Positions 18,500-34,723 of a DNA stretch of 64,000 nucleotides are shown here, piece by piece (within the stretch, counting starts at the first letter, position 1; the number at the start of each line of letters is the position of its first letter). Below the pieces are notes generated by a model that ran no database searches, was not told the origin of the DNA, and was given only the letters and a program-made list of their open reading frames with translations. Origin of the DNA: Candidatus Bathyarchaeota archaeon (GTDB lineage Archaea > Thermoproteota > Bathyarchaeia > Bathyarchaeales > Bathycorpusculaceae). A program made the translations under genes and the position numbers. Location of the stretch: positions 21,370 through 85,369 of the forward strand of contig PLNS01000013.1 of the NCBI GenBank assembly GCA_003141855.1, written 5' to 3'.

Positions 18500-18667
18500 T
18501 TAATTAGAAAGAATATTGGTTTACTCTAGCATTTCGAGACTTTGCTTTTTAGATCAGCTGAGCAAGAATCAGCGATGTCGTAAAACCATCCAAATTCTGT
18601 AAGCTATTCAATGATAAATTTTTCAGTCAGAAAACTTAAAATCCGTATAACAAAGTCAATTGTAACT

Positions 18668-19420
18668 ATGGCTTCAGGGATTAACTCGCTTCATAAGATT
18701 CTGAAAGACGAAAATCGCAGAAGAATTATACTCCAATTGCAAGAAAAAGGAAGCATAACCTACGTTGACTTAATGAAGATTCTGGGTATCACTAATACTG
18801 GAAAAATGAACTATCACTTGAAAGTACTTGGCGATTTGATAGGAAAGAATGAGGATGGCAAGTATGTTCTGACCGAGAAGGGCAAGCTCGCTACTAGGCT
18901 GCTTCTTGAATTTAATGAAAGAACATCTCTTGATAAAAAGAGCCCTTTCCAAATAGAAAGTGAATTTCCGAAGTGGTACTTGACTTTGATATACGTCTCG
19001 GCAACGGTTTATCTTGTTGTTTTCTTAGCGCTTTATGCTGCGGGGATAATAGATTTTTCAAGATTGTTATTAACTTCAATCATAATAGCTTTAGGCATAG
19101 CCTTTTTCTTTGTTGCCCAGAAAATGAGGCAGAAAAGCGGCAAATGGTCGCCTAGGCGACAAATGTTAGGCATTGAAATCGGAAAGATTATTTTCGGAGC
19201 TTTGGTCGGGATGGTGGTTTTCATTTTTGGGGGAGCACTGATTCTTTTGGGTTTTCAAGCCCTTCTAAAGTCGCTTGGAATTCAGTTTAAACTTCCTCCC
19301 TTTGCTATATCATATGTTATCATCTCAGTTGCTGGAGCAATTGTAGGTGGGTACATAGCTTATTGGCGATATAGGCGAAGCAAATATTCTCGAGTTAGCT
19401 ATTTCGAGACGTTCCCCTGA
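18668..19420 (+). CDS. Membrane-tethered ArsR-like wHTH regulator (family 2)
   Basis: SLHKILKDENRRRIIL...TGKMNYHLKVLGDL...LTEKGKLA plus about 4 TM. Confidence 0.85.
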   Translation: MASGINSLHKILKDENRRRIILQLQEKGSITYVDLMKILGITNTGKMNYHLKVLGDLIGKNEDGKYVLTEKGKLATRLLLEFNERTSLDKKSPFQIESEFPKWYLTLIYVSATVYLVVFLALYAAGIIDFSRLLLTSIIIALGIAFFFVAQKMRQKSGKWSPRRQMLGIEIGKIIFGALVGMVVFIFGGALILLGFQALLKSLGIQFKLPPFAISYVIISVAGAIVGGYIAYWRYRRSKYSRVSYFETFP

Positions 19421-19561
19421 TGCGAGTCCTCTGAGCACTAAGCCAGCCCTTTCAACCGGTGTGAAATTAGAAAAGGTTAAGAAGCGAATTTATAGAACTC
19501 CATTTTGAAGATATTTTCTTTAGTGCCCCAAGGACTAATATTAAGAAAAGCGCGTGTGTTC

Positions 19562-19581
19562 TTGACTACTTTTTTAGTCAA
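19562..19581. promoter_or_regulatory. TTGAC-N10-GTCAA palindrome upstream of BRE/TATA
   Basis: TTGAC-tactttttta-GTCAA-AAAAGCCTAAAT. Confidence 0.7.
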
Positions 19582-19617
19582 AAAAGCCTAAATCTAATCA
19601 ACCACTAATCAGACTCT

Positions 19618-20335
19618 ATGCAACAAGGATTGGCTTCATTACACAAAGTCCTAAAAGACGAAACAAGACAAAGAATACTGCTTACACTAAATGACAGAGG
19701 AAATCAATCCTATACAGTTTTAATGAGTACTCTGGGGATTACGAGTACTGGAAAGTTCAATTACCACTTGAAAATGCTAAATGGCTTACTTGAAAAAAAC
19801 CAAGATGGGCTGTATTCGTTAACTGAAAAGGGTAAACTTGCTATTCGGTTATTGGAGGAATTCTGTGAGAAGAAAAGCCAATCTGAACTCGATGCTTCGT
19901 TTCCAAAGGGCTACTTTGTTGTAGTAGGGCTTTTTTCTGTTACATTGCTTATTTTGGTTTTCGGCTTTTATGTTGCCAGAATAATCACCTTAGAAAGATT
20001 CATTCTGTATATTGCCACCTCCATTTTAGGCATTGTATTTCTTGTAATTGCTGATAAAGCAAGACGAAAAAGAGCAATGTCAAAGCCTTCAAGTCAGATG
20101 TTGGGCGCAAAAATCTCCATAATTTTGGCTGGTGCGTTTGCTTGTGGAGTTATTCTTTTCTTTGCGGGTGGTTTACTAATAGGATTAATAGCTAAATCGC
20201 GGGGAATTTCGCTTTTCGGTTTTACTGATTGGATAATAATCAGTTTTACCGTCGGCTCAATTTTAGGGCTTAGTTGGTTATTGGATTTACAAGAGAAGTA
20301 AACTGTCGAAAACAAGCTACTATGATCCGTTTTGA
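19618..20335 (+). CDS. Membrane-tethered ArsR-like wHTH regulator (family 2); C-terminal frameshift near 20268
   Basis: ORF stops at 20301, but an alternate frame VGYWIYKRSKLSKTSYYDPF* matches the paralog tail YIAYWRYRRSKYSRVSYFETF. Confidence 0.75.
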
Positions 20336-20357
20336 AGGGTAAACTCTCTCCTGCCGC

Positions 20358-20377
20358 ATGACGAGATTTTTAGTCAA
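20358..20377. promoter_or_regulatory. TTGAC-N10-GTCAA-type palindrome
   Basis: ATGAC-gagattttta-GTCAA-AAGACCTTAAAT. Confidence 0.65.
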
Positions 20378-20422
20378 AAGACCTTAAATCTTCAAGCATT
20401 CAACTAACCTTATGGAGCTGTA

Positions 20423-21298
20423 TTGATGATTAGACAAGAAAATTCCAATTCACCTAACTATGAAGCAAGTGGACTACAAGTTAATGGCAAAAAGCATGAC
20501 CGGAAATTGTATGCATCAATTGCAGGATTGGCAGTAGTTTTGATTGTTCTGGCAGCTCTGTTTATTCCTCAAGGTGCAGGATCACCGCTGGAACTTAGCC
20601 TAAACTACAAGGTAGGCGAACATATGGTCTATGACACCACAAATATCGTTACGAATCAAATGGTCAACACATCCCTTAGCCTGCCTGGCGCTACAAATAC
20701 TCAAAGCTACAATTCAACATTAACCTTAGACATCATAAGCTCTAACGCCGATAACTACGTTGTAAATGAGACAATTGTTGCTGTACCAAATTTGTTTAGT
20801 CACGCATTGCGCCCGCTGACATTAAACGTTAGTAAATCGAGCTACTACAACAATTTAATGGCGCCAGGCGGACCGCTTATTTTCTACAATACAAGTAGTA
20901 TCCCAACGATTTCAGCCTATTTAGCTCAACCAACGGTTAAAGTTGGAGAGATCTGGAAAATACCGGTCAACACAGGTAACGCAAGCCTAGGATTAACAGG
21001 CGAAGTCACCTTAACCTTTGCAGAGCTACAAGATTTGACCGTTCCAGCAGGCGCATTCAAAACCATGCGCATCGAAGTAACAAGCAATACTCTAAGCCTT
21101 CATTCAGACGGCAGTTCAATCATAAAAATTCCAAACGGCATGACTCTACAGCTAAACGGCACCTCATACATAGAGCAAGGCACCTGCCGCCTAATCAAAG
21201 CAGACCTAACACAACTAACCACTACAAATTCCCCTGGAATTGGCAGCACATCAACACTCTACACAGAAAAGACCTTGGCCGAGTACTCACACCATTAA
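20423..21298 (+). CDS. Membrane-anchored extracellular protein (close paralog of 32619..33494)
   Basis: Single TM, then a beta-rich domain; C-terminal ~60 aa almost identical to 32619. Confidence 0.85.
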   Translation: MMIRQENSNSPNYEASGLQVNGKKHDRKLYASIAGLAVVLIVLAALFIPQGAGSPLELSLNYKVGEHMVYDTTNIVTNQMVNTSLSLPGATNTQSYNSTLTLDIISSNADNYVVNETIVAVPNLFSHALRPLTLNVSKSSYYNNLMAPGGPLIFYNTSSIPTISAYLAQPTVKVGEIWKIPVNTGNASLGLTGEVTLTFAELQDLTVPAGAFKTMRIEVTSNTLSLHSDGSSIIKIPNGMTLQLNGTSYIEQGTCRLIKADLTQLTTTNSPGIGSTSTLYTEKTLAEYSHH

Positions 21299-21325
21299 GT
21301 TCTCCAATTTTTCTTTCTTTTTTGC

Positions 21326-21345
21326 TTGACGAGATTTATCGTCAA
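21326..21345. promoter_or_regulatory. TTGAC-N10-GTCAA palindrome
   Basis: TTGAC-gagatttatc-GTCAA-AAAACCTAAAAT. Confidence 0.7.
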
Positions 21346-21382
21346 AAAACCTAAAATGCGCTAAATGCCATACTCATAGCTA

Positions 21383-22066
21383 ATGACCTCAATCATTGAT
21401 TCACTCCATAAAATTCTCAAAGATGAGACCAGACGAAAAATAATCCTTTGCATAAATGAAAAAGGTAGCTTGACCTACACTGACTTAATGGAGAGTCTGG
21501 ATATCTTAAGCACGGGAACGCTAAACTACCACTTGAAAGTGTTAGGCGACCTTTTAGAAAAGGATGAGATGGAAAGATATGTTCTTTCAGAAAAGGGTAA
21601 GCTTGCATCTCATTTGTTAACTGATTTCCCGGAACAAAACGGTTCCACCCCAAATATAAGAAGACTGAAATTCCTCTGGCTATTCTCTGCAATAATTTTC
21701 ACAGTAACAGGACTTGTTATATGGTATGAGATGAACGTGCCAATTTATAGAGCGATTAATGTTATTATCGTTGCGCAGTTGAGCGCCGCATTCTTTTACT
21801 ACATACGAACAAAGCCTGAAAAAACAGGAAAAATTTTCTGGATCGCAATTGGCGTATTTGTAATTGGCGGAGCTTTATGGCTTGCACTTCAAGCCTTCAT
21901 GAAAGTAACAGGATTTAGGCTACAGCTACTGGGGTTAACAGGCAATACAGGCGAGGACCTCTTTGTTTTGATAAGCTGGATAGTTCTCTGGGTTATTGGC
22001 GGATTTGTGGGTGATTTGATAGGTAAAAAGATAAAATATAAGGTGTTATTTTATTCAGGTCTTTGA
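21383..22066 (+). CDS. Membrane-tethered ArsR-like wHTH regulator (family 2)
   Basis: Conserved wHTH plus about 4 TM unrelated to the paralogs' TM region. Confidence 0.85.
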   Translation: MTSIIDSLHKILKDETRRKIILCINEKGSLTYTDLMESLDILSTGTLNYHLKVLGDLLEKDEMERYVLSEKGKLASHLLTDFPEQNGSTPNIRRLKFLWLFSAIIFTVTGLVIWYEMNVPIYRAINVIIVAQLSAAFFYYIRTKPEKTGKIFWIAIGVFVIGGALWLALQAFMKVTGFRLQLLGLTGNTGEDLFVLISWIVLWVIGGFVGDLIGKKIKYKVLFYSGL

Positions 22067-22117
22067 AGTGAGGGCTGAAACGAACATCAGTAGAGATCTC
22101 ATTGAGCAGGTGCTATC

Positions 22118-23639
22118 TTGAGAAAAATGTTAGCATTGGCTATAGCACTTATGCTGATACTAATTGTGTTAGTATCGGCTTTCGCTGCCATATCATTCAA
22201 CAATGCAACTTCAAAACATGAAATGAACAACAAGCCGTTCTACGTTGGGGTAACATATTGTGGTAATTCAGCCATGGAAGCCCAAGAGCTCATTGATAAA
22301 GTCAAGAATTATACCAACCTGTTTGTTTTGCAGTCAGGGGCATTAATGCTTAACTTTACTGCGACAGAGCAAATATGCGACTACGCTATTATCTCTGGAC
22401 TTAACATAATTTTGTGTTATACTACAAACTGTTTAGGGAACAATTTAGACTCATTTCTTAATGAAGCCCAGTCACGCTGGGGAAGCCACTACCTTGGAGT
22501 ATATTTCAACGATGAACCAGCAGGACGGATGCTTGATTCTCATTTCATCCTTCTAAATGATAATAATACAAGCGCTACCATTACTAGAGGTGTAGACAAA
22601 ACGATTTCATTCGGCAAACAATCAGGTTCTGGATTAAATTCTACTTCATTGCAATATGATTTTGACATTTCATCAGGAATAATAACCATAACTTCAACTC
22701 CTGCAATCTTGAGCTCTTGGGGTGCGACTGCAAACCAAAATAGTCAGGCAACCAACGGAATATCTGAAGCTCCTATTAGCAGACAAACTCAAACAATTTA
22801 CTATCCTAACGGCACAGTTAGTTATACAACTGATATCACGATAACATATGAGCCAAACGGTACTGTCATAAATGAAAACGGTCAAGTTGTAAGCGATCGA
22901 GGCAACATTTCTCAATTTGAACCTTATCAGCAAGTTTGGGATTTGAATCCACTTCGAAACGACACTGATGTAGCTAATCTCTATGTGAACAACCTGCACA
23001 CCACGTTATCTTCAATTGGCAATGAGTCCTACGTTAATCTTTTCACTTCAGACTATGGACTTTATTGGTTTGATTATGAAGCTGGATAATACCGTTTTTA
23101 CAGAGTTTGGTTGGAACAATAGTCGTCAAATGGACATTGCATTTTGCAGAGGAGCAGCTACTGCTCAGGATAAAGATTGGGGTGTTATGATTACTTGGAC
23201 TTATAACCAGCCACCTTATCTTGAGAACGCTACTAAGCTTTATGCTGACATGAAGTTAGCCTATGATAATGACGCTAACTACATTGTGGTTTTCAACAGT
23301 GATGGGAGCAATAGCGGAATCTTGGATAACGACCAATTTAATGCTATACAAGCGTTCTGGCAATATGTTCAAAGTAATCCAAAGACAAATGATGTTTCAA
23401 GAGGTAGAGTTGCTTATGTTCTGCCAGAAGGTTACGGGTACGGCTTCAGAGGAATGAATGACTCCATATGGGGATTGTGGGAAGCAGATAATTTTTCAGA
23501 CCATCAACTAAGTAACATTAACAGTGAATTTCAACAATACGGAAGTAAACTTGATGTAATCTTTGATGACCCATTATTTTCATTTTATCAGAACCCGTAT
23601 TCAAGAGCAATTTATTGGAACGAAACGATAACTTCTTAA
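22118..23639 (+). pseudogene. GH-like barrel paralog 2, frameshifted at ~23087
   Basis: ...YWFDYEAG-TAA; restoring TA (ggata[ta]atacc) gives GYNTVFTEFGWN as in the paralogs. Confidence 0.8.
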
Positions 23640-23697
23640 CATTATAAAGAAGACACCAAAAAAGCAATTAAATAATCAATAGGGCTTTTCCAAAGCC

Positions 23698-23833
23698 TTA
23701 TGGTCTAATTTGTGTTTTTTCAGTTTGACCCCAAGTATCCACTGCAAATCTTGTGAGCGCCCAATGCCAACCGAGTTTCTCCGTAACATGCGCTATAGAC
23801 TCGATTTCCAAAAGTTGGTTCAAAGATTCCTTG
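23698..23833 (-). pseudogene. 'AEKRGWH' family fragment
   Basis: LLEIESIAHVTEKLGWHWALTRFAVDTWGQTEK. Confidence 0.6.
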
Positions 23834-23863
23834 ATTTTGTTTTTCGAACCATTTGGTGAACTT

Positions 23864-25393
23864 TTAACTTGTTTGGTTCCAGTAATATATATGGCTGTAT
23901 TTTCCAGCCGCAGGGTACGCTGGGTCATCATAAACTATGTCTAGTCTCGAGCCATATTGCGCAAGTTTGCTTTGCAACTGAGTCCAGATTTGCTGTGAGG
24001 TGCTATTTGCGTTCCATAAGCCCCAAATCGTATCGCTTGGGTTTCGCATGCCCCAACCATAATCCTTAGGCAAAACCAGAACGGCTTCCGCTTTAATGCC
24101 TCCATGAACAACGCTACTGTTTTGCACTACCTCATTCCAGAAACGTTGGAGGGCTTGGAAATGCTCATCTTGCAATGTTCCATACGGACCATCCATGCCA
24201 TCAGCGTAGTTAAAAACAACCACATACTTAGCACCGCACTCATAAGATGTGAGCATCTGCTCATACATCTCATCGCCATTTGTCAAATAAGGTGGCTGTG
24301 TGTATTTCCAAGTGATTATTGTTCCCCAATCTTTGCCCTGCAAATCAGCTGCACCGCGTACTAAGCCGATTTCTTGGGCAACCGAATTGTTCCAGCCTAA
24401 CTGTGCAAGAACCACGTCGTATCCACTCTTGTAATCCCACCAGTAAAGACCATAATCAGACGTAAAAATTGGAAAATCCCCTTTGCTTATGTTACATTGA
24501 TTTCTCAAATTATCTATGGGTCCTTTGGTTTTGGCTATAAAGAGATTTGCTGCGGCATTGTAATCAGGTATTGGGTTGTCGCTCTTTATTTGCAGGTAAG
24601 TTTTTTCTTGAGCTATGATATCTGAGCCATTTTCCATTGTATAGAAATTATCCCTCAGTACTTGGTAAGAGTTCCCTGCATCATAGTGACCATAAGGTAA
24701 ACCGCCCGTGAATACTTTATTTATTGTGCTTGTGAGCGTTTCTCTTAGAGTTACTGAGCCGTTTGGCTCATAAGTGGTCATGTTGGTGTTACTTAACGTG
24801 TTAGATATCGTTACAGAAGAATTGTTGGGGTCACGCTCAAGTGAAAAGGTTTCATTGCTTTTTTTTACTTCAATTTTGCCTTCTGGAAAAAATGCTGTCC
24901 AACACCCATTATAATCAGAACAGTTTACGACGCCATCATTTAATTTATTGATAAAAATTCCTTGATTCTCATAAAAAAAGATGGAGCCATCAAGCATTTT
25001 GCCTCCAGGTTCATCGCCCAAATAGACTCCCACGAACATGCCTCCCCATCGTTGCTTGGCAGTTCCTATCCACTCCGCGTTTTGGGCATTACCTATTACG
25101 TCAAAGTAAGCCGCAAAGTGTAATCCTTTGGCTACTGCGTAGTCGCCTACCTCATTCACGGCATTCGCATCATTTTTTAGTGAGCCTGATTGCAGTACAA
25201 ACAGGTTAGTGTAATCTGCAACTTTGTCAATAAGCAGTTTTGCCTCAGCGGTTGTATCTCCACCAAACGTGACGCCGACATAGAACGGTTTTGAATCGCT
25301 GTTTTTACTCAAAGAAGCGTAATTGATAACGGCGACTAATCCGATCAATACTATGAGTATTATAGCAACTGAAAGGATTATCGCCCGCTTCAT
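23864..25393 (-). CDS. GH-like barrel paralog 3 (no C-terminal anchor)
   Basis: YLGDEPGG, FTSDYGLYW, AQLGWN, YVVVFN motifs. Confidence 0.8.
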   Translation of the reverse strand: MKRAIILSVAIILIVLIGLVAVINYASLSKNSDSKPFYVGVTFGGDTTAEAKLLIDKVADYTNLFVLQSGSLKNDANAVNEVGDYAVAKGLHFAAYFDVIGNAQNAEWIGTAKQRWGGMFVGVYLGDEPGGKMLDGSIFFYENQGIFINKLNDGVVNCSDYNGCWTAFFPEGKIEVKKSNETFSLERDPNNSSVTISNTLSNTNMTTYEPNGSVTLRETLTSTINKVFTGGLPYGHYDAGNSYQVLRDNFYTMENGSDIIAQEKTYLQIKSDNPIPDYNAAANLFIAKTKGPIDNLRNQCNISKGDFPIFTSDYGLYWWDYKSGYDVVLAQLGWNNSVAQEIGLVRGAADLQGKDWGTIITWKYTQPPYLTNGDEMYEQMLTSYECGAKYVVVFNYADGMDGPYGTLQDEHFQALQRFWNEVVQNSSVVHGGIKAEAVLVLPKDYGWGMRNPSDTIWGLWNANSTSQQIWTQLQSKLAQYGSRLDIVYDDPAYPAAGKYSHIYYWNQTS

Positions 25394-25455
25394 TAATGCA
25401 GCACTCTAACAAGTCTGGATAAGCTGCCGATTTCGGTTTATTTAGTTTTCTGAAT

Positions 25456-25756
25456 TCAAGTCCTTTTCTGTTTCTCCCAAACTTCCATCGTAAAACTGGT
25501 AAGTGTCCAGTGCCAGCCGCGCTTCTCTGCAATGTGTTCGCCAAACTCTTTTTCCAAACGCCTGTTCACTCTCAGGATTCTTTGGCATCATCTGAAAACG
25601 ACTATTTTTAGAGTGCTTATTTTAACAGTATTCAAACCCAAAGTGAGTCAGGTCTCTATGTCCCTGACCCCAAAAAGGTTCAAAACCTGATTGAAAACAA
25701 AAGGTAGCACTTGCGTTTCTCAAACAGTTGGCACAAAGCGGGTCCGGTGGGATTCG
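25456..25756 (-). repeat. Composite relic: tRNA-3'-like fragment (25738-56), conserved ~55-bp element and 'AEKRGWH' fragment
   Basis: 25511-25659 aligns closely with 34801-34948; minus-strand CGAATCCCACCGGACCCGC resembles a tRNA T-loop/acceptor 3' end. Confidence 0.75.
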
Positions 25757-26065
25757 TTTAAACTATTAAGCGAATCCTCAACGCATCCAATTTTGAATTA
25801 CTTCAAGCTGGTATACCTGCGCTGCTAACTTAGATTAAAATTTAGGGTTTTTTCTGCCTCGTTTATGTGCCATACTAACAACCCGCACTACGCAACTTTT
25901 GGGTGAAGGGGGCGAACAAGAGAAGGAGCTTGAGCGATTGCTCGCCTAAATTTCTGCGCAGAAGATATAGCATCAACCTTAAAAAACTACCTATTACGCT
26001 TGGAGTGGTACGCACAAAGCATAAATGCAAACTGAATCAATAAACACAACTGGAACTGGCAAGTT

Positions 26066-26304
26066 ATGGATAGAGCAGAAACCCTCGCTGTGCTTCACGA
26101 AATCTTAGAAGTGTGCAAAGAATAATCTTAATGAATAGCGTTTCTTTAGATAACCCACCAATTTCCTCCACATCAAAAAGTTACCTGACAAAAATAAACT
26201 GCACCCTCGATAGTACTTCAAAGCAATGTATTGCACCAATTCTGAAAAAACATGAACTTTTCCTAAAAGAATCAGAAAGCTTTGCAGTAATTCAAGGCAT
26301 CTAA
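26066..26304 (+). pseudogene. Small hypothetical protein, frameshifted paralog of 26430..26693
   Basis: MDRAETLAVLHEILEVCKE-TAA; one missing C (gaat[c]aatc) joins it to ILMNSVSLD...; aligns with MKREEAILVLKELFDKC... Confidence 0.65.
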
Positions 26305-26429
26305 TTAATTAAAAGATTTTCGAATTGAGAGTTGGTTCCTGAAAGCTAACTTACTTGAAGCTCCATTTACCGTTTAGCTCTTTGGGGAGGAACGCACTAT
26401 GAAAGTTGTTTCTTTGCCCCAAAATCGCT

Positions 26430-26693
26430 CTACTTCTGGGGAACAGGGGCGGGAGGGCTGTAAATTATGAAACTATCTTCTTCTTCGACTTTAATAGTAA
26501 GCTGATATTTCATTAGAACGTCTTGCATGCATGTTCTTGTTTCTTCGTCAAGAGCCGCCTTAATATGTATTTGATACCCCAAACTCATATCTTTGGAAGC
26601 TTTAGGCGGTATTACTTCTAAATAATGACCATCGAGATTAGTGCACTTATCAAAAAGCTCTTTTAAAACCAATATTGCTTCTTCACGCTTCAA
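26430..26693 (-). CDS. Small conserved hypothetical protein
   Basis: 87 aa, with a paralog on the opposite strand. Confidence 0.75.
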   Translation of the reverse strand: MKREEAILVLKELFDKCTNLDGHYLEVIPPKASKDMSLGYQIHIKAALDEETRTCMQDVLMKYQLTIKVEEEDSFIIYSPPAPVPQK

Positions 26694-26847
26694 AAAAATC
26701 CCTAATAAATTTAGCGTTAATGCATTATAAAAACATTAAGCTTCTAGCGCTATTTGATTAAAAGTGCTATGGCTCGCTTACGACTCAAGAACCAAGGCTA
26801 CATAGGATCGCGCGCGCTGACGAGAAAAAGAATACTCTAAAGACAGC

Positions 26848-29244
26848 TCATCTAGTTAGAGGCAAACTTACTGTGAAAGTGGTTCCTTTGCCCTCTTGGC
26901 TTTCAAATGTGATAGTTCCGCCTAGTGCCTCAGTCATTCGCTTAACCACGGGTAAACCGAAGCCTTGACCCTTCGCTTTTGTCGTGAACATAAGTGTAAA
27001 CATTTTACCTTGTACATCTTTAGGAATGCCTACCCCAGTGTCCTTAACAGTAATAACTATGTCCTTTGGGCCTCGGAAGGCATGTATAGTTAGTGTGCCG
27101 CCATTTGGCATGGCTTGCACAGCATTAGTAACTAGGTTGTACATGATGCGGTTTATGTAGTAGGAATCGGCACTAATTTTTTCAGCTTTATTTTCTATTT
27201 TAACGCTTAGTTCAATGTTATCTGGCATACTCTGTTTTACCAACAACTCTGCAATTATCAGTTTCAGGTCAGTTTCTTCTGCCTTTGGGTTAAGAGGTCT
27301 GGCATAATCTTGCAGGTCTTGCACAATTTTGTTAATGTAGTCAATGTTCTTTTCAATCTCCTGCAGACTTTCTAATGCGTTCTTTTTCTCTTCGCTCTCA
27401 GGTGTCGAAGCTAATTCTGTTTTAGCCAAGTAAACATCGCTGGTAATAGCCTGCAACGGATTACGGATATCATGCCCAACCATACCAGCAGTAGCGCCGA
27501 TAGCGGCTAAACGCTCAGAATCCTTAAGCTGCTTAGTACGTTCTTCAACAAGTTTCTCCAAGTTCTCTCGGTATTCCGAGAACTTCAATTCAGCTTGCTT
27601 TCTTTCAGTAATATCGGTAAATGAGATTGCTACTTGTTTATCATTTGTTTTCCAAGCATAAACTTCATACCACTTGTCAAGTTCAGCGCCATAATTCTCA
27701 AAATGGAGGGTAGTTCCAGTTTTGGCAACTTGGTCGTAAAATTCGATCCAGTAATCTTCAACAACTCCAAATATGTCTTTTGCACGTTTGTTAACGAGTT
27801 GTTCTCTTGGTTTTGCTACAAGTTTTTCGAAAGCAGGATTAACTTCGCGGTAATAATAATCAATCGCCTTCCCGTCATTATCGTAAATTAACTCAATAAC
27901 TTGAAACATCTCAGTCATGGAACTAAAAAGCTGACGATAACGATGCTCACTTTGCGTTAATGCTTCTTCAGCTTTCTTACGTTCGGTTATGTCGTGGTTG
28001 ATGAACAAATGTCGTCCTGGCAAAACGTTAGCTGTACCCGTAGATTCTACTATACTAAATGTTCCATCCGGATGCTTAATCTTGTCTACACTGAAGTAAT
28101 GTCCAGTTTTGAGAAAGTTGCGCACTGCCTCATCGGTGTTATAATTCGGTTCGGTGAACTCCGTAACTGATCGACCGATCAATTGGTCACGCGAGACACC
28201 ATAAATAGCCGCAGCAGCTGGATTAGCCTCCACGTACCGAAAATTCTCATCAAATAATATTACGCCATCCGGTGTGGAGTCAAAAATAGCCTTCAATTGG
28301 TTTTGATTTTCTTTCAGCGCTTCTTCCGCATTCTTGCGTTCAGTGATGTCAACAAATAGTGCTATAAAATAGTCTTTCTTTGGGCTGTAGGCGGAAACGT
28401 TTAGCCATTTTTTCAAAGATTGCCTATAACTTTCAAAGTGGGCAGGTTCTCCCGTGAGCGCGACACGACCATATCGCCCGATCCAGTCTGCAGGGTCTTT
28501 CGGTTCTTCTGGAAACAGCTCATTAACCTTTTTGCCGATAATTTGCTCTCTCTTTAGCCCTACTATTCGACTATAAGCATCGTTGACGTCAAGGAAAATC
28601 CAATCGACGGGCTTTCCATTCTTGTCAACCAGGATTTTGCAATAGAGAAACGCGTCTAGCATGTTACTGAACAATGCAGCAAACTGTTCGCGATTACTCC
28701 TAAATGCTTCAGCCCACCCGCCCGCAATATCAGTGCCAGTAGTTGATTTTCTGGACGCGAGAAGAGCAGCTACCAAGTAAAAAGTCCCAGTGTATAACGT
28801 TAGTCTTCCAAGCCATGTGGGCACATCGCCAATAGTCTTTTGTTCGAAAGCACTAAACAACCCAATACTAACGAGTCCAATGGCAAGAGCATACCAATAA
28901 AGCGAAGGCGACTTCGACCTCAAGAATTGAACTCCAAAAATTAAGGCGGCAACTGCAAAGAAGAAAACTGATGACCCCAACACAACCTGACGCAGCAAAG
29001 TTGGTCCTGATGCGTCGAAGAATGTTGGATAGTAACCCAGCAAAGCTACGGTTGAATTAACCAACACGAAAATTACAGATGCAAGGTAGGCAGTTGCAAG
29101 CAACTTTTTTCTGTTTGATGTTTTGGTTTCCTGTTGTTTAAGTGTGTGTGACTGTGAAGCTACAACTACCGGTGAAAAGTGCCATGTTTTTGTCTCCTTG
29201 ATTCTTACGAGAGAACATGAGAAGAACCTCCCAAATAAAAGCAT
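26848..29244 (-). CDS. Multi-PAS sensor histidine kinase with partial MASE3-like TM input; 5' end probably truncated
   Basis: Three PAS/PAC repeats (DITERK), H-box GHDIRNPL, N-box NLVTNA, G1 DTGVGI, G2 TTKAKGQGFGL. Confidence 0.9.
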   Translation of the reverse strand: MLLFGRFFSCSLVRIKETKTWHFSPVVVASQSHTLKQQETKTSNRKKLLATAYLASVIFVLVNSTVALLGYYPTFFDASGPTLLRQVVLGSSVFFFAVAALIFGVQFLRSKSPSLYWYALAIGLVSIGLFSAFEQKTIGDVPTWLGRLTLYTGTFYLVAALLASRKSTTGTDIAGGWAEAFRSNREQFAALFSNMLDAFLYCKILVDKNGKPVDWIFLDVNDAYSRIVGLKREQIIGKKVNELFPEEPKDPADWIGRYGRVALTGEPAHFESYRQSLKKWLNVSAYSPKKDYFIALFVDITERKNAEEALKENQNQLKAIFDSTPDGVILFDENFRYVEANPAAAAIYGVSRDQLIGRSVTEFTEPNYNTDEAVRNFLKTGHYFSVDKIKHPDGTFSIVESTGTANVLPGRHLFINHDITERKKAEEALTQSEHRYRQLFSSMTEMFQVIELIYDNDGKAIDYYYREVNPAFEKLVAKPREQLVNKRAKDIFGVVEDYWIEFYDQVAKTGTTLHFENYGAELDKWYEVYAWKTNDKQVAISFTDITERKQAELKFSEYRENLEKLVEERTKQLKDSERLAAIGATAGMVGHDIRNPLQAITSDVYLAKTELASTPESEEKKNALESLQEIEKNIDYINKIVQDLQDYARPLNPKAEETDLKLIIAELLVKQSMPDNIELSVKIENKAEKISADSYYINRIMYNLVTNAVQAMPNGGTLTIHAFRGPKDIVITVKDTGVGIPKDVQGKMFTLMFTTKAKGQGFGLPVVKRMTEALGGTITFESQEGKGTTFTVSLPLTR

Positions 29245-29491
29245 TCGAAAAGTTGGCTTTACAAGTGAAAACGGGTTGAATCAAAAAGGGTTCGTACCCT
29301 AAACGGTGCTAGTCTCTACCGGACTCAGCCCGCAACAGGTATGAGCCAACAACAATGTGTGCAATGAGATTTTGTCGCCAACTTACCAGTAAAAATGATT
29401 TGTTGAACCCAAATCGAAAATTGGTTTGGGATAGATGGGATTCGTTTAAAACATTAAGCAAATCCTCTATTTTCCTTGAAGAAAAGTTGAA

Positions 29492-29516
29492 ACGGGCCCG
29501 CTGGGTCTCAGACCCA
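29492..29516 (-). repeat. Degenerate tRNA-3'-like (att-like) fragment
   Basis: Minus strand TGGG-TCTGAGA-CCCAG-CGGGCCC-G. Confidence 0.45.
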
Positions 29517-29720
29517 AACGGGTTCGGAACCATAGTTTGCATTTGTTCTGTTTACAACTTCACCGATGATTAGGGATAGTGTTTTCTTTTTAAGTTATTA
29601 ATGGGTTTGAGAGGAGTTGGTAGAAACCTAATTTTTCTCCAGCGTATTCAGCTAGGACATCCAGTCCTCAATAATATTTACCACTTTGTTGTCACCTTCC
29701 ATGTCTTGTAGGCTGAGAAT

Positions 29721-29787
29721 AAAAACCAACTATCGTTGCAAAGCAGACTCTGCTTTGTGAGGCCTCGCAAAGTCACCTATCCAAAAA
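29721..29787. repeat. Palindromic hairpin element, copy 1
   Basis: AAAGCAGA-C-TCTGCTTT followed by GTGAGGCCTCGCAAAG; 60/67 identical to copy 2. Confidence 0.85.
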
Positions 29788-29897
29788 AAGACCTATATTC
29801 TCTTGAATTGTCAACGACGCTTTTGCTCTTTAACTGACAAACTGGCAAAGCATATAAGCGCAGAATTCGATAACTTGCCCTCATCTCTGGGGTATGT

Positions 29898-30239
29898 ATG
29901 AGCAGAACAAAAAAAGACATTACTATTAAAGGTCGTACATTGGAAGAAGCAAGAACCGTTGTACAAAAATGGTTTAGCGAAAACAAGATAGCAACAATAG
30001 AAAGCACCCCGAACTCTATTAAAGGTCGTTGGGGTACAGGTTTTCTCACAGCGCCCAAATACTTTCAAGTAACATTCGTGCCTACGGAAGGAGGAGTAAT
30101 TGCACAAACAGCAGGTTGGATGACGTGGTATTGGTTGAAAGATCAGGATTTCTCGTCATCTGCCATTGGTGGAGGTATTCCAAGGCGAGAGGGATGGCGA
30201 GCAATGGAGCGTTTATGGAGCACCCTACAATCTTCATAA
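29898..30239 (+). CDS. Hypothetical protein; stand-alone form of the C-terminal domain of regulator 33884..34723
   Basis: Shared LTAPKYF.V, GW, GGIPR..GW...E.LW..L motifs. Confidence 0.8.
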   Translation: MSRTKKDITIKGRTLEEARTVVQKWFSENKIATIESTPNSIKGRWGTGFLTAPKYFQVTFVPTEGGVIAQTAGWMTWYWLKDQDFSSSAIGGGIPRREGWRAMERLWSTLQSS

Positions 30240-30267
30240 ATCCATAAACATACCACTCACAAAATCA

Positions 30268-30644
30268 TCAAAAGTATTCGATAAACTTGCCTAGTTGTTC
30301 ATCAGTTGCTGTTTCTAGGAATTCTTCGATGTTTTTTCATCCAGCCGCAAGTTTGCTTTTCCTTTCTGAGTCAAATTATAGAGTACAGATTCTCCCTGAA
30401 CTTTCCCAGGTTTACAACCAACATCGACAAGGCATTTCTCATCAATTAAGACGTTTATTCGCCGATAAACCGTTCCTCAAGCAAAGTGTCTGCATCCCTT
30501 CATCCCATTGATAATTTTGTAGATTTCAAACTTTGTAAGGGGTGTTTTAGAGGACTTTAAGAGTTTCATGATAAGACGGTTGAGGCGTGCCTGTTTCCCA
30601 CTAAACAGCTTAAGCTTTGTACCTCTGCATTTACCCCCTGCCAT
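30268..30644 (-). pseudogene. Winged-helix (PadR-like) gene, inactivated paralog of 31504..31920
   Basis: MAGGKCRGTKLKLFSGKQARLNR...; in-frame TGA at 30477-79 and a 1-bp deletion near 30333. Confidence 0.8.
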
Positions 30645-30711
30645 TTAGGCTATGCCCCTCCAGTCCTGGAGGAGCTCAAAAGAAGAGGAAGCTTATCATA
30701 CTAACCCAAAC

Positions 30712-30777
30712 AAAAACCATCTATCGCCGCAAAGCCGACTCGGCTTTGTGAGCCTCGCAAAGACACCTATCCAAAAA
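30712..30777. repeat. Palindromic hairpin element, copy 2
   Basis: AAAGCCGA-C-TCGGCTTT: compensatory A-T to C-G change relative to copy 1. Confidence 0.85.
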
Positions 30778-30912
30778 CGGACATTTCAACAATATTAAAA
30801 TAATATTTACAAAGAAATGCAATTACACCTGCTTCGGACCTTGACTAAAAAAATTCGTCAAAACGGCTGAGCGCTTCTTACAACCGCGAAAAGCTAAAGA
30901 ACCTACTGCGCT

Positions 30913-31476
30913 ATGTACATTAAGAGAAAAATGCAACGTCGACACATCATTGCGGTAAGTCTCCTGCTAATCACAATTCTCAGCTGTTTAATATTTTATT
31001 TTAGTTTGCCTGGGACTCGTCTGGATGTATCTGGTTTTCCTACATCGCAAAACTATGGTACGTATACAGCATTTGGACCCTCATATGAAGCTGGAAGTTA
31101 TGTTATAATTAACAATTCTTATCAAGTGCATAATATTGGCAATGTTAACGCGAGCAATATTCAAGTGAAATTCAATGTGTATCCTGCAGACACCTCAAAG
31201 ACATGCAAGATCATTTCCATCTCTATATATACAGACGAACCTACACCAACCAACTTGTTGACAATAGTAAAAGACAAAAACGAATACACAATAGCCACGT
31301 TGAATCCTGATGCAAAAGTCATTTTCGTTTTCCAGATTAAGTCAACAAACCTCCACTCAGATACAAAATACGTCTTAAATGTTGATTCTGCTAATGCAGG
31401 TTCATTTTATAGAGAAGTCCTATCGCAAGGAAAATATGGCAGTACCGTTCATGAACAGCGCTGGCCTTGGTGGTAA
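30913..31476 (+). CDS. Membrane-anchored Ig-like protein
   Basis: N-terminal TM, beta-sandwich motifs (VHNIGNVNASNIQV). Confidence 0.7.
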   Translation: MYIKRKMQRRHIIAVSLLLITILSCLIFYFSLPGTRLDVSGFPTSQNYGTYTAFGPSYEAGSYVIINNSYQVHNIGNVNASNIQVKFNVYPADTSKTCKIISISIYTDEPTPTNLLTIVKDKNEYTIATLNPDAKVIFVFQIKSTNLHSDTKYVLNVDSANAGSFYREVLSQGKYGSTVHEQRWPWW

Positions 31477-31503
31477 CACCTCAAGATACCCCGTCAACTC
31501 AAG

Positions 31504-31920
31504 CTATAATACGTCAATAAACTTGGCTAACTGCTCATCAGACGCTGTTTTCAGGAATTCTTCAATGCTTATTTCATCCAGTCTTAAAGCTAATTTTCCC
31601 TTAAGCGTCAGTTCGTAGAGTATAGATTCTCCTTGCACTTTTGCTGGTCTTTTGCCCCTGTGAGCGATCCAGCCTTCCTGATTCAAAACCTCTATGCGTC
31701 TGTAAACGGTCTTGGAGTCTTTGCGTTTTAATCCCTTCATACCGTGAATTTGCAAGTAAACGTCATATTTTGCTAACGGATGTTTTGAGGAGAGGAAAAC
31801 TAGCAGTATGACGCGGTTTAGAGTCGCCTCTTTGCCACTAAACACCTTAAACGGTGTACCTTTACCCTCTTCCGCGCCAAAGTTTTCTGCTCTCCCCCTC
31901 AACTCTGGAAGATGAAGCAT
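31504..31920 (-). CDS. Winged-helix (PadR-like) DNA-binding protein
   Basis: TVYRRIEVLNQEGWI...LYELTLKGK wing motif. Confidence 0.7.
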   Translation of the reverse strand: MLHLPELRGRAENFGAEEGKGTPFKVFSGKEATLNRVILLVFLSSKHPLAKYDVYLQIHGMKGLKRKDSKTVYRRIEVLNQEGWIAHRGKRPAKVQGESILYELTLKGKLALRLDEISIEEFLKTASDEQLAKFIDVL

Positions 31921-32199
31921 GGCGCTCGATGCTGCTTATTACATTGACTCAGCTTTTTTCAGCGGTTTTGTTCGAGGTGAAATTTTTCTACATGTAGAAA
32001 TGCCTTGGGCAAAATTTTTTCGGAGACCCTATTTTAACAAAATTTGAAATTTGATGGAGATGGAAAGCGATTTTTCTGTTTTTTTCGGTGTTTTGACGGG
32101 GTGTTTTCTATTTGTAGAAACGTTTTCCGCATAGCATTTCTACCTTGAAAAAGCCCAAAACTGATAATGCGGCGGGCGATTCTCTATCTTGAGGGTATT

Positions 32200-32526
32200 C
32201 TAAGAAGGGTTCTGTTTTGTTTCTTTGCTTCTTTGGAGCCTATAGATAAAGTATACATTTACTATCATTAGAACCCAAAAGAAGTAAAAGCTAAAATTAG
32301 GTTCTACAGCGCCAATACTTGGGAAGGTATAATTGTAGAAAGTTATCGATAGAGGACTCCATAGTGCATGATGGGAAGGCATATTGCCAAAGTAATCGTA
32401 AACTAAATTAGAGACAACAAAAAAGAAACCCAATAAACCATTGACAAAAATCATAATCTTAAACTGTTTAGGCATGGCAATCATAGTTTCATTTGTTTTT
32501 TCTGTCTTAAAAGATTTTAGAACCAA
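32200..32526 (-). CDS. Small 2-TM membrane protein
   Basis: ORF track; hydrophobic segments. Confidence 0.65.
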   Translation of the reverse strand: MVLKSFKTEKTNETMIAMPKQFKIMIFVNGLLGFFFVVSNLVYDYFGNMPSHHALWSPLSITFYNYTFPSIGAVEPNFSFYFFWVLMIVNVYFIYRLQRSKETKQNPS

Positions 32527-32553
32527 TTTTTCCGTTTGTGCATCTTTGATTCT

Positions 32554-32573
32554 TTGACTATATTTTTAGTCAA
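32554..32573. promoter_or_regulatory. TTGAC-N10-GTCAA palindrome
   Basis: TTGAC-tatattttta-GTCAA-AAGACCTTAAAT. Confidence 0.7.
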
Positions 32574-32618
32574 AAGACCTTAAATTCTCAAGCATCCAAC
32601 TAACCTTTTAGAGATGTT

Positions 32619-33494
32619 TTGATGTTTAGACAAGAAAATTCAGGTTCATCCACCTCTGTGCCAAACGGACTACAAGCTAGTACTAAAAAGCATGACAGAA
32701 AGTTATACGCATCAATCATAGGATTCGTGGTGATTTTGGTTATTCTTGCAGCTCTGTTTATTCCTCAAAGCTCTGGCTCACCAATGGATCTGAGCCTAAA
32801 CTACGCGGTAGGAGAACATATGGTCTATGATTCCACAAATATTGTAACGAACCAAATGGTCAACGCATCCCTTAGCCTACCGGGCATTACAAATACTCAA
32901 AGCTACAATTCAACATTAACCTTAGATATCATAGGCTCAAGCACTGATAACTATAAAGTAAACGAGACGATAGCTACCTCCCCAGATTTGTTTAGCCATC
33001 CTTTGCCGCCGCTCACATTAAACGTTAGCAAGGCAAGCTACTTCAACAATTTCATGGCGCCAGGAGGGCCACTTATCTTCTACAATTCAAGCAGTAACCC
33101 CACCATTTCCGCCTATTTAGCCCAGCCAACAGTTAAGGTCGGGGATGTTTGGAAAATCCCGGTTAACACAGGTAACGCAAGCCTTGGATTAACAGGTGAA
33201 GTCACACTGACATTTGCAGGATTACAAGATGTAACAGTTCCAGCAGGCACCTACAAAACCATGCGCATCGAAGTAACAAGCAATACTCTAAGTCTTCACT
33301 CAGATGGAAGTTCAATCATTAAAATTCCAAACGGCATGACTCTACAGCTAAACGGCACCTCATACATAGAGCAGGGCACATGTCGCCTAATCAAAGCAGA
33401 CCTAACACAATTAACGACTACTAATTCTCCTGGAATTGGCAGCACATCAACACTCTACACAGAAAAGACCTTGGTTGAGTACACCCACCCTTAA
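32619..33494 (+). CDS. Membrane-anchored extracellular protein (duplicate of 20423..21298)
   Basis: High amino-acid and nucleotide similarity. Confidence 0.85.
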   Translation: MMFRQENSGSSTSVPNGLQASTKKHDRKLYASIIGFVVILVILAALFIPQSSGSPMDLSLNYAVGEHMVYDSTNIVTNQMVNASLSLPGITNTQSYNSTLTLDIIGSSTDNYKVNETIATSPDLFSHPLPPLTLNVSKASYFNNFMAPGGPLIFYNSSSNPTISAYLAQPTVKVGDVWKIPVNTGNASLGLTGEVTLTFAGLQDVTVPAGTYKTMRIEVTSNTLSLHSDGSSIIKIPNGMTLQLNGTSYIEQGTCRLIKADLTQLTTTNSPGIGSTSTLYTEKTLVEYTHP

Positions 33495-33573
33495 TTTCCC
33501 AGTATTTCTTTCTCTTTTTGTTTGCTACATTTTAGTCAAAAACCTAAATTAACCATAAGACTGATCATAGTTT

Positions 33574-33813
33574 ATGAATCAAGGACTAGCTTCCCATCAG
33601 TCATCCAAGAAAACCGATTGGCTTCTTGGGGTAAAAATATTATGGCTTCTTTCATTAATATCTCTAATAATTGTGGTACTCCTAAATGCTATCAGCGTAA
33701 ACAACCTAATTTTTACGTGGTTATTCTTTGCCACAGGGGTATTTTATTTAATAAGATATTTCAGAGAAAAAGCTAGAAACAACCGAGCACAAACGACTGA
33801 TGTTAGAGCATAG
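33574..33813 (+). CDS. Small 2-TM protein starting like a family-2 regulator
   Basis: MNQGLAS versus MQQGLAS (19618); similar promoter half-site. Confidence 0.6.
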   Translation: MNQGLASHQSSKKTDWLLGVKILWLLSLISLIIVVLLNAISVNNLIFTWLFFATGVFYLIRYFREKARNNRAQTTDVRA

Positions 33814-33826
33814 CTTTGTTTATTCT

Positions 33827-33846
33827 TTGACGAGATTTATCGTCAA
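33827..33846. promoter_or_regulatory. TTGAC-N10-GTCAA palindrome
   Basis: Identical to the site at 21326. Confidence 0.7.
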
Positions 33847-33883
33847 AAAACCTAAAATGCCATAAAAACTATACCCATACCTA

Positions 33884-34723
33884 ATGACCTCAACGATTGA
33901 TTCTTTACATAAAATTCTCAAGGATGAAACCAGAAGAAATATCGTTCTGCTACTGAGCGAGAAAAGCAGCTTAAGCTACACTGATCTGATGGACGCCCTA
34001 AAAATTGGCAGTACTGGAACCCTAAATTATCACCTAAAAATTTTAGGTGACCTTTTAGAAAAGAACATGACTGGGCAGTATATGCTCACTGAAAAGGGTA
34101 AACTCGCTTCCCGATTCCTTATAGAGTATCCTGGACAAGATGGTTCCTTAAAGGCTAAAAGAGTGTGGTGGCGTCGATTCTGGTTCGTAGCAATCGTGCT
34201 TCCGACCGCATGGCTGCTGATTGTGTTGTATTTGCATTTCTCGGGTTATTTAGATTTGTATCGGACGGCGCAAGCTACTTTTGGATTTATCACCGCCATA
34301 CTTTTTACCTACTTTTTCTACCGAATGATTCGACCTAAAAACAAAACCCAAGCTCAGAAATCCCAAGATAGAACCATCCACGATATCCTTGTTTCCGGAA
34401 GACAATTACAAGAAGTAAAGGAAGAGGTACAACGCTGGATAACAGAAGAAGGCATAAACATAGAAGTTGAACAAGAGGTATTCATCAGAGGGCGGCTTGG
34501 AATTCCAAGCGGACTTGGATTAACCGCTCCAAAATATTTTGAGGTATCATTGAAGCCTGACCAAAAAGGAGTAATGGTTCACACTGAAGGCTGGATAAGC
34601 GTGTATGACATAAGTGAGAGAAGCTTCTCTAAGACTGCACTTTCGATGGGCGGAATACCAAGGAAAAAAGGCTGGACAGTTATCGAGCATCTATGGGAAA
34701 GACTAAGAGCAATGTCAAAATAG
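33884..34723 (+). CDS. Membrane-tethered ArsR-like wHTH regulator (family 2) with extra C-terminal domain
   Basis: wHTH plus 2 TM plus a domain homologous to 29898..30239. Confidence 0.85.
   Translation: MTSTIDSLHKILKDETRRNIVLLLSEKSSLSYTDLMDALKIGSTGTLNYHLKILGDLLEKNMTGQYMLTEKGKLASRFLIEYPGQDGSLKAKRVWWRRFWFVAIVLPTAWLLIVLYLHFSGYLDLYRTAQATFGFITAILFTYFFYRMIRPKNKTQAQKSQDRTIHDILVSGRQLQEVKEEVQRWITEEGINIEVEQEVFIRGRLGIPSGLGLTAPKYFEVSLKPDQKGVMVHTEGWISVYDISERSFSKTALSMGGIPRKKGWTVIEHLWERLRAMSK

Follow-up and report, generated by a model that had tools for sequence, protein, structure and literature searches.

A palindromic operator-like element at the promoters of membrane-anchored winged-helix regulators in a Bathyarchaeia genome

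The window analyzed here is a stretch of 64,000 nucleotides from Candidatus Bathyarchaeota archaeon (GCA_003141855.1, PLNS01000013.1), which covers positions 21370-85369 of contig C6 in a 2.39-Mb genome that is 96% complete. Four genes in it, R1 to R4, encode proteins with an N-terminal winged helix-turn-helix (wHTH) domain followed by a transmembrane (TM) module, and two more encode 290-aa anchored proteins, termed partner A and partner B. The palindrome TTGAC-N10-GTCAA, or a variant of it, stands before each of these genes and is considered as the candidate operator of the family. A position weight matrix (PWM) was built solely from sites in other genomes and then scanned over the whole 2.39-Mb genome; its scores are given with the features below, together with the neighbouring boxes that resemble a transcription factor B recognition element and TATA box (BRE/TATA).

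18611-18630, plus strand: candidate operator of R1, diverged, of the ATGATAA-N6-CAGTCAG type; PWM 33.1; followed by AAAACTTAAAAT, with the ATG 37 nt downstream
18668-19420, plus strand: R1, 250 aa, ArsR-like wHTH (DUF7347) and 4-TM module, helix class NTGK; PF24038 E 2.6e-9, four hydropathy peaks
19562-19581, plus strand: exact candidate operator of R2, CTA/CTA half-sites; PWM 42.5; abuts BRE/TATA at 19582-19594
19618-20301, plus strand: R2, 227 aa, wHTH and 4-TM module, helix class STGK; PF24038 E 1.2e-11
20358-20377, plus strand: one-mismatch candidate operator of partner A, hybrid CGA/CTA half-sites; PWM 38.6; abuts BRE/TATA at 20378-20390
20426-21298, plus strand: partner A, 290 aa, N-terminal TM anchor and predicted extracellular open beta-barrel; homologs lie behind the same element in other genomes
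21326-21345, plus strand: exact candidate operator of R3, CGA/CGA; PWM 43.4; abuts BRE/TATA at 21346-21359
21383-22066, plus strand: R3, 227 aa, wHTH and 4-TM module, helix class STGT; PF24038, PF01022, PF13412
32554-32573, plus strand: exact candidate operator of partner B, CTA/CTA; PWM 41.6
32622-33494, plus strand: partner B, paralog of partner A with 83% amino-acid identity
33520-33539, plus strand: decayed candidate operator 5' of a small TM gene, proximal TAGTCAA kept and distal half lost; intact counterpart at C9:1963; below the PWM threshold
33574-33813, plus strand: 79-aa two-TM protein, with a copy on contig C9 behind an intact site
33827-33846, plus strand: exact candidate operator of R4, CGA/CGA; PWM 43.4
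33884-34723, plus strand: R4, 279 aa, wHTH, TM hairpin and conserved cytoplasmic alpha/beta domain (AlphaFold2, AF2, model), helix class STGT; PF24038, PF01022

The palindrome: promoter context, conservation and regulon

Exact copies of TTGAC-N10-GTCAA were found in the window at 19562, 21326, 32554 and 33827, four against 0.12 expected, and none of 100 shuffles reached this number. The copies before R3 and R4 (21326 and 33827) were identical 20-mers, and a fifth copy at 20358 carried one mismatch, ATGAC instead of TTGAC. With two mismatches allowed the palindrome was at chance level (37 against 36 expected), so the signal lies in the exact and near-exact copies plus their context. A BRE/TATA-like box, AAAA(A/G)CC(T)TAAA(T), abutted all five of them; the preliminary description of this DNA, which had placed the palindrome directly before AAA-CC-TAAA at 19562, 20358, 21326, 32554 and 33827, thus holds, with four exact copies and one near-exact (20358). 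The distance from palindrome to ATG was about 36 nt, and the TAAA box stood about 27 nt 5' of the ATG, which would be the geometry of an archaeal BRE/TATA with leaderless mRNA; the partner genes instead have a leader of about 15 nt with GGAG. The start of R1 was placed at 18668 rather than at 18611 because it fits the spacing rule of 36-37 nt.

Two of the variant copies named in that description also belong to the set. The score of the one at 18611 stands against a null of 0.3 matches per genome, and its variant form was kept in the orthologous loci L025 and L026, while the one near 33522 is a decayed form of the intact site in the paralogous cassette on C9. The downstream genes, described there as regulators of one family or their partner surface proteins, were indeed the four wHTH-TM regulators (18668, 19618, 21383, 33884) and the two 290-aa anchored proteins (20426, 32622). 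The copy with an 11-nt spacer at 30841 had been counted in the same set and was dropped from it, since the palindrome TTGAC-N11-GTCAA at 30841-30861 exists but is followed by no BRE/TATA box and received no score from the PWM. It lies 51 nt 5' of the gene for a 187-aa anchored protein at 30913, and is separate from a repeated hairpin element at 29718-29792 and 30709-30782.

A scan of a genome collection for relatives returned 80 loci, nearly all from metagenome-assembled genomes of Bathyarchaeia. Within the 100 nt upstream of the homologous genes, TTGAY-N10-RTCAA was present exactly in 55 of the 80 loci (0.04 expected) and with at most one mismatch in 71 (1.0 expected), and the distance from dyad to ATG was 35-37 nt in 71 of 91 scored genes. 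Genomes of the same genus and order had the same palindrome pattern at their loci. A7 and T14, positions outside the selection criteria, were likewise symmetric, the spacer was T-rich toward the gene, and AAAA-CC-TAAAT after the palindrome was conserved. Altogether 110 sites were located in the homologous loci, 88 of them before regulators and about 15 before homologs of the 290-aa partner. In some genomes the cassettes combined a partner gene with a tandem of two or three regulators, all behind modules of their own, and in others (L053, L056, L068; G001:C3:519963-520006) one palindrome lay between two divergent BRE/TATA boxes, equidistant from both, flanked by a regulator and, in the opposite direction, a partner gene.

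Among 120 genomes drawn evenly across the class, the module was essentially confined to the genus of the window. Within the genus, matches occurred in 32 of 60 genomes, the genome of the window having the most (11 matches, 9 of them promoter modules), and promoter-like sites were absent from the scanned genomes of the genus that lack a close family member. The related proteins formed at least 433 clusters, all with generic names only; a literature search found no papers on DUF7347, and none on promoters or regulons of Bathyarchaeia.

These data bear on the reading that the palindrome has no regulatory role, being either a hairpin (a terminator or RNA element) or a sequence inherited with duplicated promoters. 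Several copies are recent segmental duplicates, and at 21326 and 33827 the palindrome comes after a T-rich stretch behind the upstream gene, as this reading would have it. Against it, among loci whose proteins are 35-50% identical the arms are kept while the spacer and the flanks have changed, positions 6 and 15 are unpaired in 42 of 91 sites, a point against a structural stem, and the palindrome keeps its distance to the ATG that follows rather than to the gene before it. It is also found before non-homologous genes (the ABC operon described below, the partner and the small TM gene) and between divergent promoters. The terminator or hairpin was rejected, and a palindrome with no role at all is scarcely credible.

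Over the whole genome 12 exact dyads were counted, against 2 for a reversed control, and the PWM scan gave 13 modules of palindrome plus promoter, against 0.3 in shuffled sequence. A hidden Markov model of the four wHTH domains of the window revealed eight strong paralogs in the genome, namely R1 to R4, two on contig C9 (C9a and C9b) and one each on C25 and C27, and all eight carry the module in their own promoter. The other five modules belong to the three copies of the 290-aa protein (20426 and 32622 in the window, one on C9), to the 79-aa two-TM gene of C9, and to an ATPase/permease operon of an ATP-binding cassette (ABC) transporter of the ABC-2 class. This operon, of the DrrA/lantibiotic-protection type, adjoins the window on the left (C6:20829, minus strand). 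Every target predicted from the 13 modules is an operon for membrane proteins. As a side observation, C9b (L001:3249-4184 on contig C9, 311 aa) has two wHTH domains split by a TM segment and a diverged operator, CTGACAA-N6-TAATCAA.

In a survey of the genome's promoters, CCTAAA near -35 derived mostly from the palindrome regulon; the consensus of this survey is blurred by uncertain start codons, and it speaks solely to the origin of CCTAAA at -35, not to box strength. With 13 modules in 2.39 Mb, all at family, partner or transporter genes, the palindrome is a family-specific, operator-like element and not a general promoter element, the latter being the outcome that the preliminary description had named as fatal to its regulon.

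The regulator proteins and neighbouring genes

The N-terminal part of the regulators, about 85 residues, matched DUF7347 and ArsR-type HTH profiles. PF24038 was hit by all four window regulators (34.5-45.1 bits, cut-off 27.6) and PF01022 by R3 and R4 (24.9 and 29.4 bits, cut-off 22), and the ArsR fold was also indicated by PF12840; the closest solved sequence was a putative ArsR, 1Y0U. For the wHTH of R4, the AF2 model predicted helices at 15-27, 32-39, 44-57 and 70-81 and a wing at 58-68, and Foldseek aligned it with PagR (TMt 0.76, rmsd 2.1) and CadC (TMt 0.65). As modelled, the domain is a winged helix of the ArsR type. The metal or metalloid sites of such proteins (alpha3N CXC, alpha5 His/Asp/Glu cluster) were looked for, and no conserved Cys was present in the wHTH alignments, the invariant residues being L, D, R, Y, N, H50, K and similar; NCBIfam metalloregulator models reached 24-26 bits against a cut-off of 55.

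The wHTH is tied closely to the membrane: the tether from alpha5 to TM1 has about 5-15 residues, TM1 starts about 10 residues past the wHTH, and a conserved EFPE motif is located exactly at the junction. By hydropathy R1, R2 and C9a have four TM segments and R3 and C25 show three peaks; in R4 AF2 predicted long helices at 87-119 and 125-149. Read from the charge distribution, both termini would be cytoplasmic and the outside loops very short. No HAMP or other Pfam match was found after the wHTH in the window regulators, and nothing significant came from Pfam or NCBIfam for the TM modules, the partner, the small TM protein or the C-terminal domain of R4.

Pairwise identity of the wHTH domains among the regulators was 54-86%. 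For the 4-TM modules, pairwise BLASTP with default statistics gave 36% for R1-R2 (E 3e-13), 26% for R1-R3 (E 9e-6), 35% for R3-C25 and 67% for R3-C9a, so the modules of R1, R2, R3, C9a and C25 are diverged homologs, weakly but significantly related. Clustering of the C-terminal modules by single linkage, without correction for composition, put 72 of 98 together and was set aside in favour of pairwise BLASTP. Other architectures were observed in R4 (2 TM and a conserved cytoplasmic domain of about 120 aa), C27 (2 TM) and C9b (double wHTH). The idea that one DNA-binding domain had been joined to swapped TM regions is therefore right for R4 and for rarer architectures elsewhere, and fails as a general rule. 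Stand-alone proteins of about 170 aa that match solely the TM module of R3 (residues about 88-220, 22-34% identity) were seen at G000:C7:6559-6936 and in many genomes of the genus, so the 4-TM module exists also without a wHTH.

R4 keeps the first TM hairpin, the rest being replaced by the cytoplasmic alpha/beta domain. Its C-terminal part was 50-97% identical in 14 orthologs, the cytoplasmic domain being more conserved than the wHTH. The R4 wHTH is nearest to that of R3 (69%), while the membrane module of R3 has its relatives in R1 and C25, which indicates that the R4 lineage replaced its module. A stand-alone 113-aa protein at 29898-30239 has 41% identity to the cytoplasmic domain of R4 (E 8e-30), and the domain thus occurs both free and fused. 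Its fold bore a weak likeness to KA1, AMPK-CTD and SRPBCC by Foldseek; the fold searches for this domain and for the partner gave low TM-scores (0.2-0.39) and serve as leads only.

In the AF2 model of the 290-aa partner (pLDDT 79), a single TM anchor joins a cytoplasmic tail to an open barrel made wholly of beta strands. Foldseek retrieved the lipid-binding barrels of vitellogenin, ApoB and MTP, a YmcC-like fold and LmcA at TM-scores of 0.3-0.39, giving a hint that the partner may bind a hydrophobic ligand. By analogy with ToxS or TcpH, a role as co-sensor may be supposed.

Further genes lie between and beside the cassettes. The overlapping open reading frames 22118-23089 and 23016-23639, in different frames, jointly match single anchored or secreted proteins of about 510 aa (L010; C6:27820-29298; C13), and the pair is a frameshifted copy or an assembly error. 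A 509-aa open reading frame at 23864-25393 (minus strand) is a paralog of this protein, which has at least nine copies in the genome and often adjoins regulators in other genomes. A 798-aa histidine kinase with a PAS domain (26848-29244, minus strand) lies between the two regulator cassettes.

Residue-base covariation and the proposed operator

The bases of the palindrome vary with residues of the wHTH. In R4 numbering, the predicted recognition helix (H44-57) has S43 and T46 at its beginning, T46 being its third position (motif STGT). All 25 regulators with T46 had at least one CGA half-site, and none of the 66 without T46 had G at base 6 in either half (half-site Fisher 6e-28). Asparagine at the helix N-cap (N43) went with T at base 5 of the distal half in 23 of 24 cases, against 1 of 67. 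For phylogenetic contrasts, a full-length tree was built with the helix residues masked, and in it T46-G6 changed in the same direction in seven of seven independent supported pairs (p 0.016). Partner operators with a CGA half were confined to the neighbourhood of STGT regulators (5 of 5, against 0 of 3 where other classes alone were nearby), in small numbers that include some duplicates. This covariation points to direct binding by the family's own proteins.

R3, R4 and C9a have CGA-class operators, while the class is CTA for R2, ATAA/CAGTCAG for R1 and CAA/CTA for C25. Cross-binding would be expected among R3, R4 and C9a, as they have the same helix and operator class; the other classes are probably at least partly insulated. 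A single operator shared by many sensors, as first proposed, is thus retained for at least these three regulators, whose C-terminal modules differ (on the identical 20-mer, R3 has a 4-TM module and R4 a hairpin with cytoplasmic domain), and given up for the other subfamilies, whose bases 5 and 6 differ and track the helix residues.

Several observations weigh on the other side. The contrasts for N43-T5 were too few (p 0.125), with L082 as an exception, and a tree of the wHTH only was poorly resolved and left just one or two supported contrasts. Promoter and helix are less than 200 bp apart, so that co-transfer by recombination or gene conversion could mimic co-evolution. The half next to the BRE is nearly always TAGTCAA whatever the helix class, the distal half being class-specific, for which a simple homodimer model gives no reason; this asymmetry is plain in the base-6 pairs (AT 26 against TA 3, GT 9 against TG 2) and the base-5 pairs (TC 19 against CT 4). 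Finally, 20358-21355 and 32554-33550 of the window and C9:998-1990 are segmental duplicates with 84-88% nucleotide identity, as are the whole cassettes (20358-22066, 32554-34723 and C9:998-3013), so the window sites are partly non-independent.

A different, soluble transcription factor might instead bind the palindrome, the wHTH-TM genes and partners being merely its regulon. Many other wHTH proteins with weaker ArsR-like matches are encoded in the genome, and the invariant proximal half-site could suit a common factor. The site, however, is found in the own promoter of eight of eight paralogs and about 90% of the 80 homologs, promoter-like sites were not found in genomes of the genus that lack the family, and operator bases 5 and 6 vary with residues in the recognition helix of the family itself; a separate factor is quite improbable.

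The best reading is that the palindrome is probably the operator through which the wHTH-TM family regulates its own genes, and the autoregulation suggested in the preliminary description is carried forward. TTGAY-n-A-N6-T-n-RTCAA would be the operator of transmembrane one-component regulators specific to Bathyarchaeia. Each regulator would consist of an N-terminal cytoplasmic ArsR-fold wHTH (DUF7347), the tether of about 5-15 residues, and a membrane module, usually of 4 TM helices with both ends cytoplasmic, and in R4 a TM hairpin with a cytoplasmic domain. A dimer would bind the 20-bp dyad, whose centre is some 47 bp 5' of where a leaderless or short-leader transcript would begin and whose end lies directly against the BRE. 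In this way a regulator may control its own gene and a few genes for membrane proteins, namely the 290-aa beta-barrel partner, the small TM protein and the ABC-2 transporter, with the subfamilies reading slightly different operators (T46 with G6, N43 with T5).

The sign of the regulation may be either, and activation is favoured only slightly. The same regulator could be an anchored ArsR-like autorepressor that occludes the BRE and blocks transcription factor B and the TATA-binding protein until it is released by a signal at the membrane module, as in ArsR/SmtB derepression. ArsR/SmtB proteins are mostly autorepressors, with NCBIfam names such as SdpR autorepressor, the wHTH is of their type, and the proximal arm is in contact with the A-rich BRE, part of which a footprint would probably cover. 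The dyad, however, covers neither the TATA box nor the start site, over which archaeal repressors mostly bind. In addition, the CCTAAA-type box is rare at the genome's other promoters, and so atypical a TATA-like box would be in keeping with a promoter that depends on an activator. The boxes of the membrane-bound archaeal regulators ArnR and ArnR1, which are activators, lie upstream of the BRE (PMC6396743), as does the site here. Autorepression is given a little under even chances.

It was also suggested that the wHTH is released by regulated proteolysis, within the membrane or just beside it, and then occupies the operator as a soluble dimer. The short tether would make DNA binding at the membrane surface sterically demanding, and the EFPE motif at the junction is conserved. 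However, no protease gene is linked to the cassettes, the predicted targets are all membrane proteins whose genes are possibly held at the membrane by co-translational insertion, and ArnR, BcrR and ToxR bind DNA while anchored (PMC6396743, PMC3968067, PMC10269533). Release by proteolysis is therefore considered unlikely. Action of the tethered regulator at the membrane, on target genes brought there by co-translational insertion, fits both the short tether and the membrane-protein targets and is the course we infer.

A more far-reaching scheme, which we regard as a long shot, is a combinatorial membrane code. All classes would accept the proximal TAGTCAA, the distal half (CGA, CTA, CAA or ATAA) would be class-specific, and hybrid operators such as 20358 and C9:998 would be read by heterodimers or by competing homodimers, co-translational insertion holding the targets beside the tethered regulators. 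If it were true, several membrane signals would be integrated at single promoters with no soluble transcription factor.

Bathyarchaeia are abundant, uncultured archaea of sediments and guts, and to our knowledge essentially nothing is known of their transcription regulation. The present analysis offers a concrete candidate operator, a small predicted regulon and a simple predicted recognition rule (T46-G6, N43-T5) for lineage-specific, membrane-tethered regulators, with eight paralogs in one genome and one operator reached by two kinds of sensor module. The family could serve as a model for how tightly tethered regulators find their DNA targets.

Comparison with known systems

The family and its putative operator are uncharacterised, while one-component regulators that control their own genes through palindromic operators are in general a familiar principle. 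Transmembrane transcription regulators (TTRs) were found in most archaeal genomes, at about four per genome, by Demey et al. 2023 (PMC10269533). The family falls within their definition, a DNA-binding domain and at least one TM region in one polypeptide, having a wHTH followed by two to four hydropathy peaks, and it reaches eight members of one family alone in this genome. That survey is a census; for no ArsR-type archaeal TTR does it give an operator, a regulon or a specificity code, and its text mentions neither Bathyarchaeota nor ArsR (PMC10269533).

ArnR and ArnR1 of Sulfolobus acidocaldarius are membrane-bound one-component activators of the archaellum, with inverted-repeat boxes upstream of BRE/TATA (PMC6396743). 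Like the present family they are archaeal, combine an N-terminal HTH with a membrane anchor, and are paralogs with nearly identical DNA-binding domains. ArnR differs in having HAMP and sensor domains and two C-terminal TM helices, whereas here an ArsR-type wHTH is almost directly fused to a 4-TM bundle. Its boxes, TCGAC-N5-GTCGA, are two, both needed, at -43 to -84, whereas a single 20-bp dyad, TTGAY-N10-RTCAA, abuts the BRE here; and pilus and archaellum genes are regulated by ArnR, whereas the main predicted targets here are the regulators themselves.

In layout the family resembles BcrR, for which a four-TM architecture was reportedly described by Gauntlett et al. in 2008. BcrR is the one-component transmembrane regulator of the bcrAB ABC transporter in Enterococcus faecalis (PMC3968067). 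As in the present family, an N-terminal HTH is directly followed by a multi-TM bundle with almost no extracytoplasmic domain, which makes intramembrane sensing likely, and an ABC transporter is controlled, as is predicted for one target here. The analogy is one of architecture only, since BcrR is a single bacterial regulator with an XRE-type HTH and sigma-70 promoter geometry, whereas the HTH here is of the ArsR type.

The ArsR/SmtB proteins (CadC 1U2W, PagR 2ZKZ, A. fulgidus 1Y0U) share the winged helix, and the recognition-helix signature of the present family, xxxxxNYHLKxL, resembles their SxxxxSxHLxxL. They are also dimeric, bind palindromic operators and are typically autoregulated. Unlike them, the family described here is devoid of the Cys/His metal sites in alpha3 and alpha5, is anchored in the membrane, and has as its putative operator TTGAC-N10-GTCAA, set next to an archaeal BRE.

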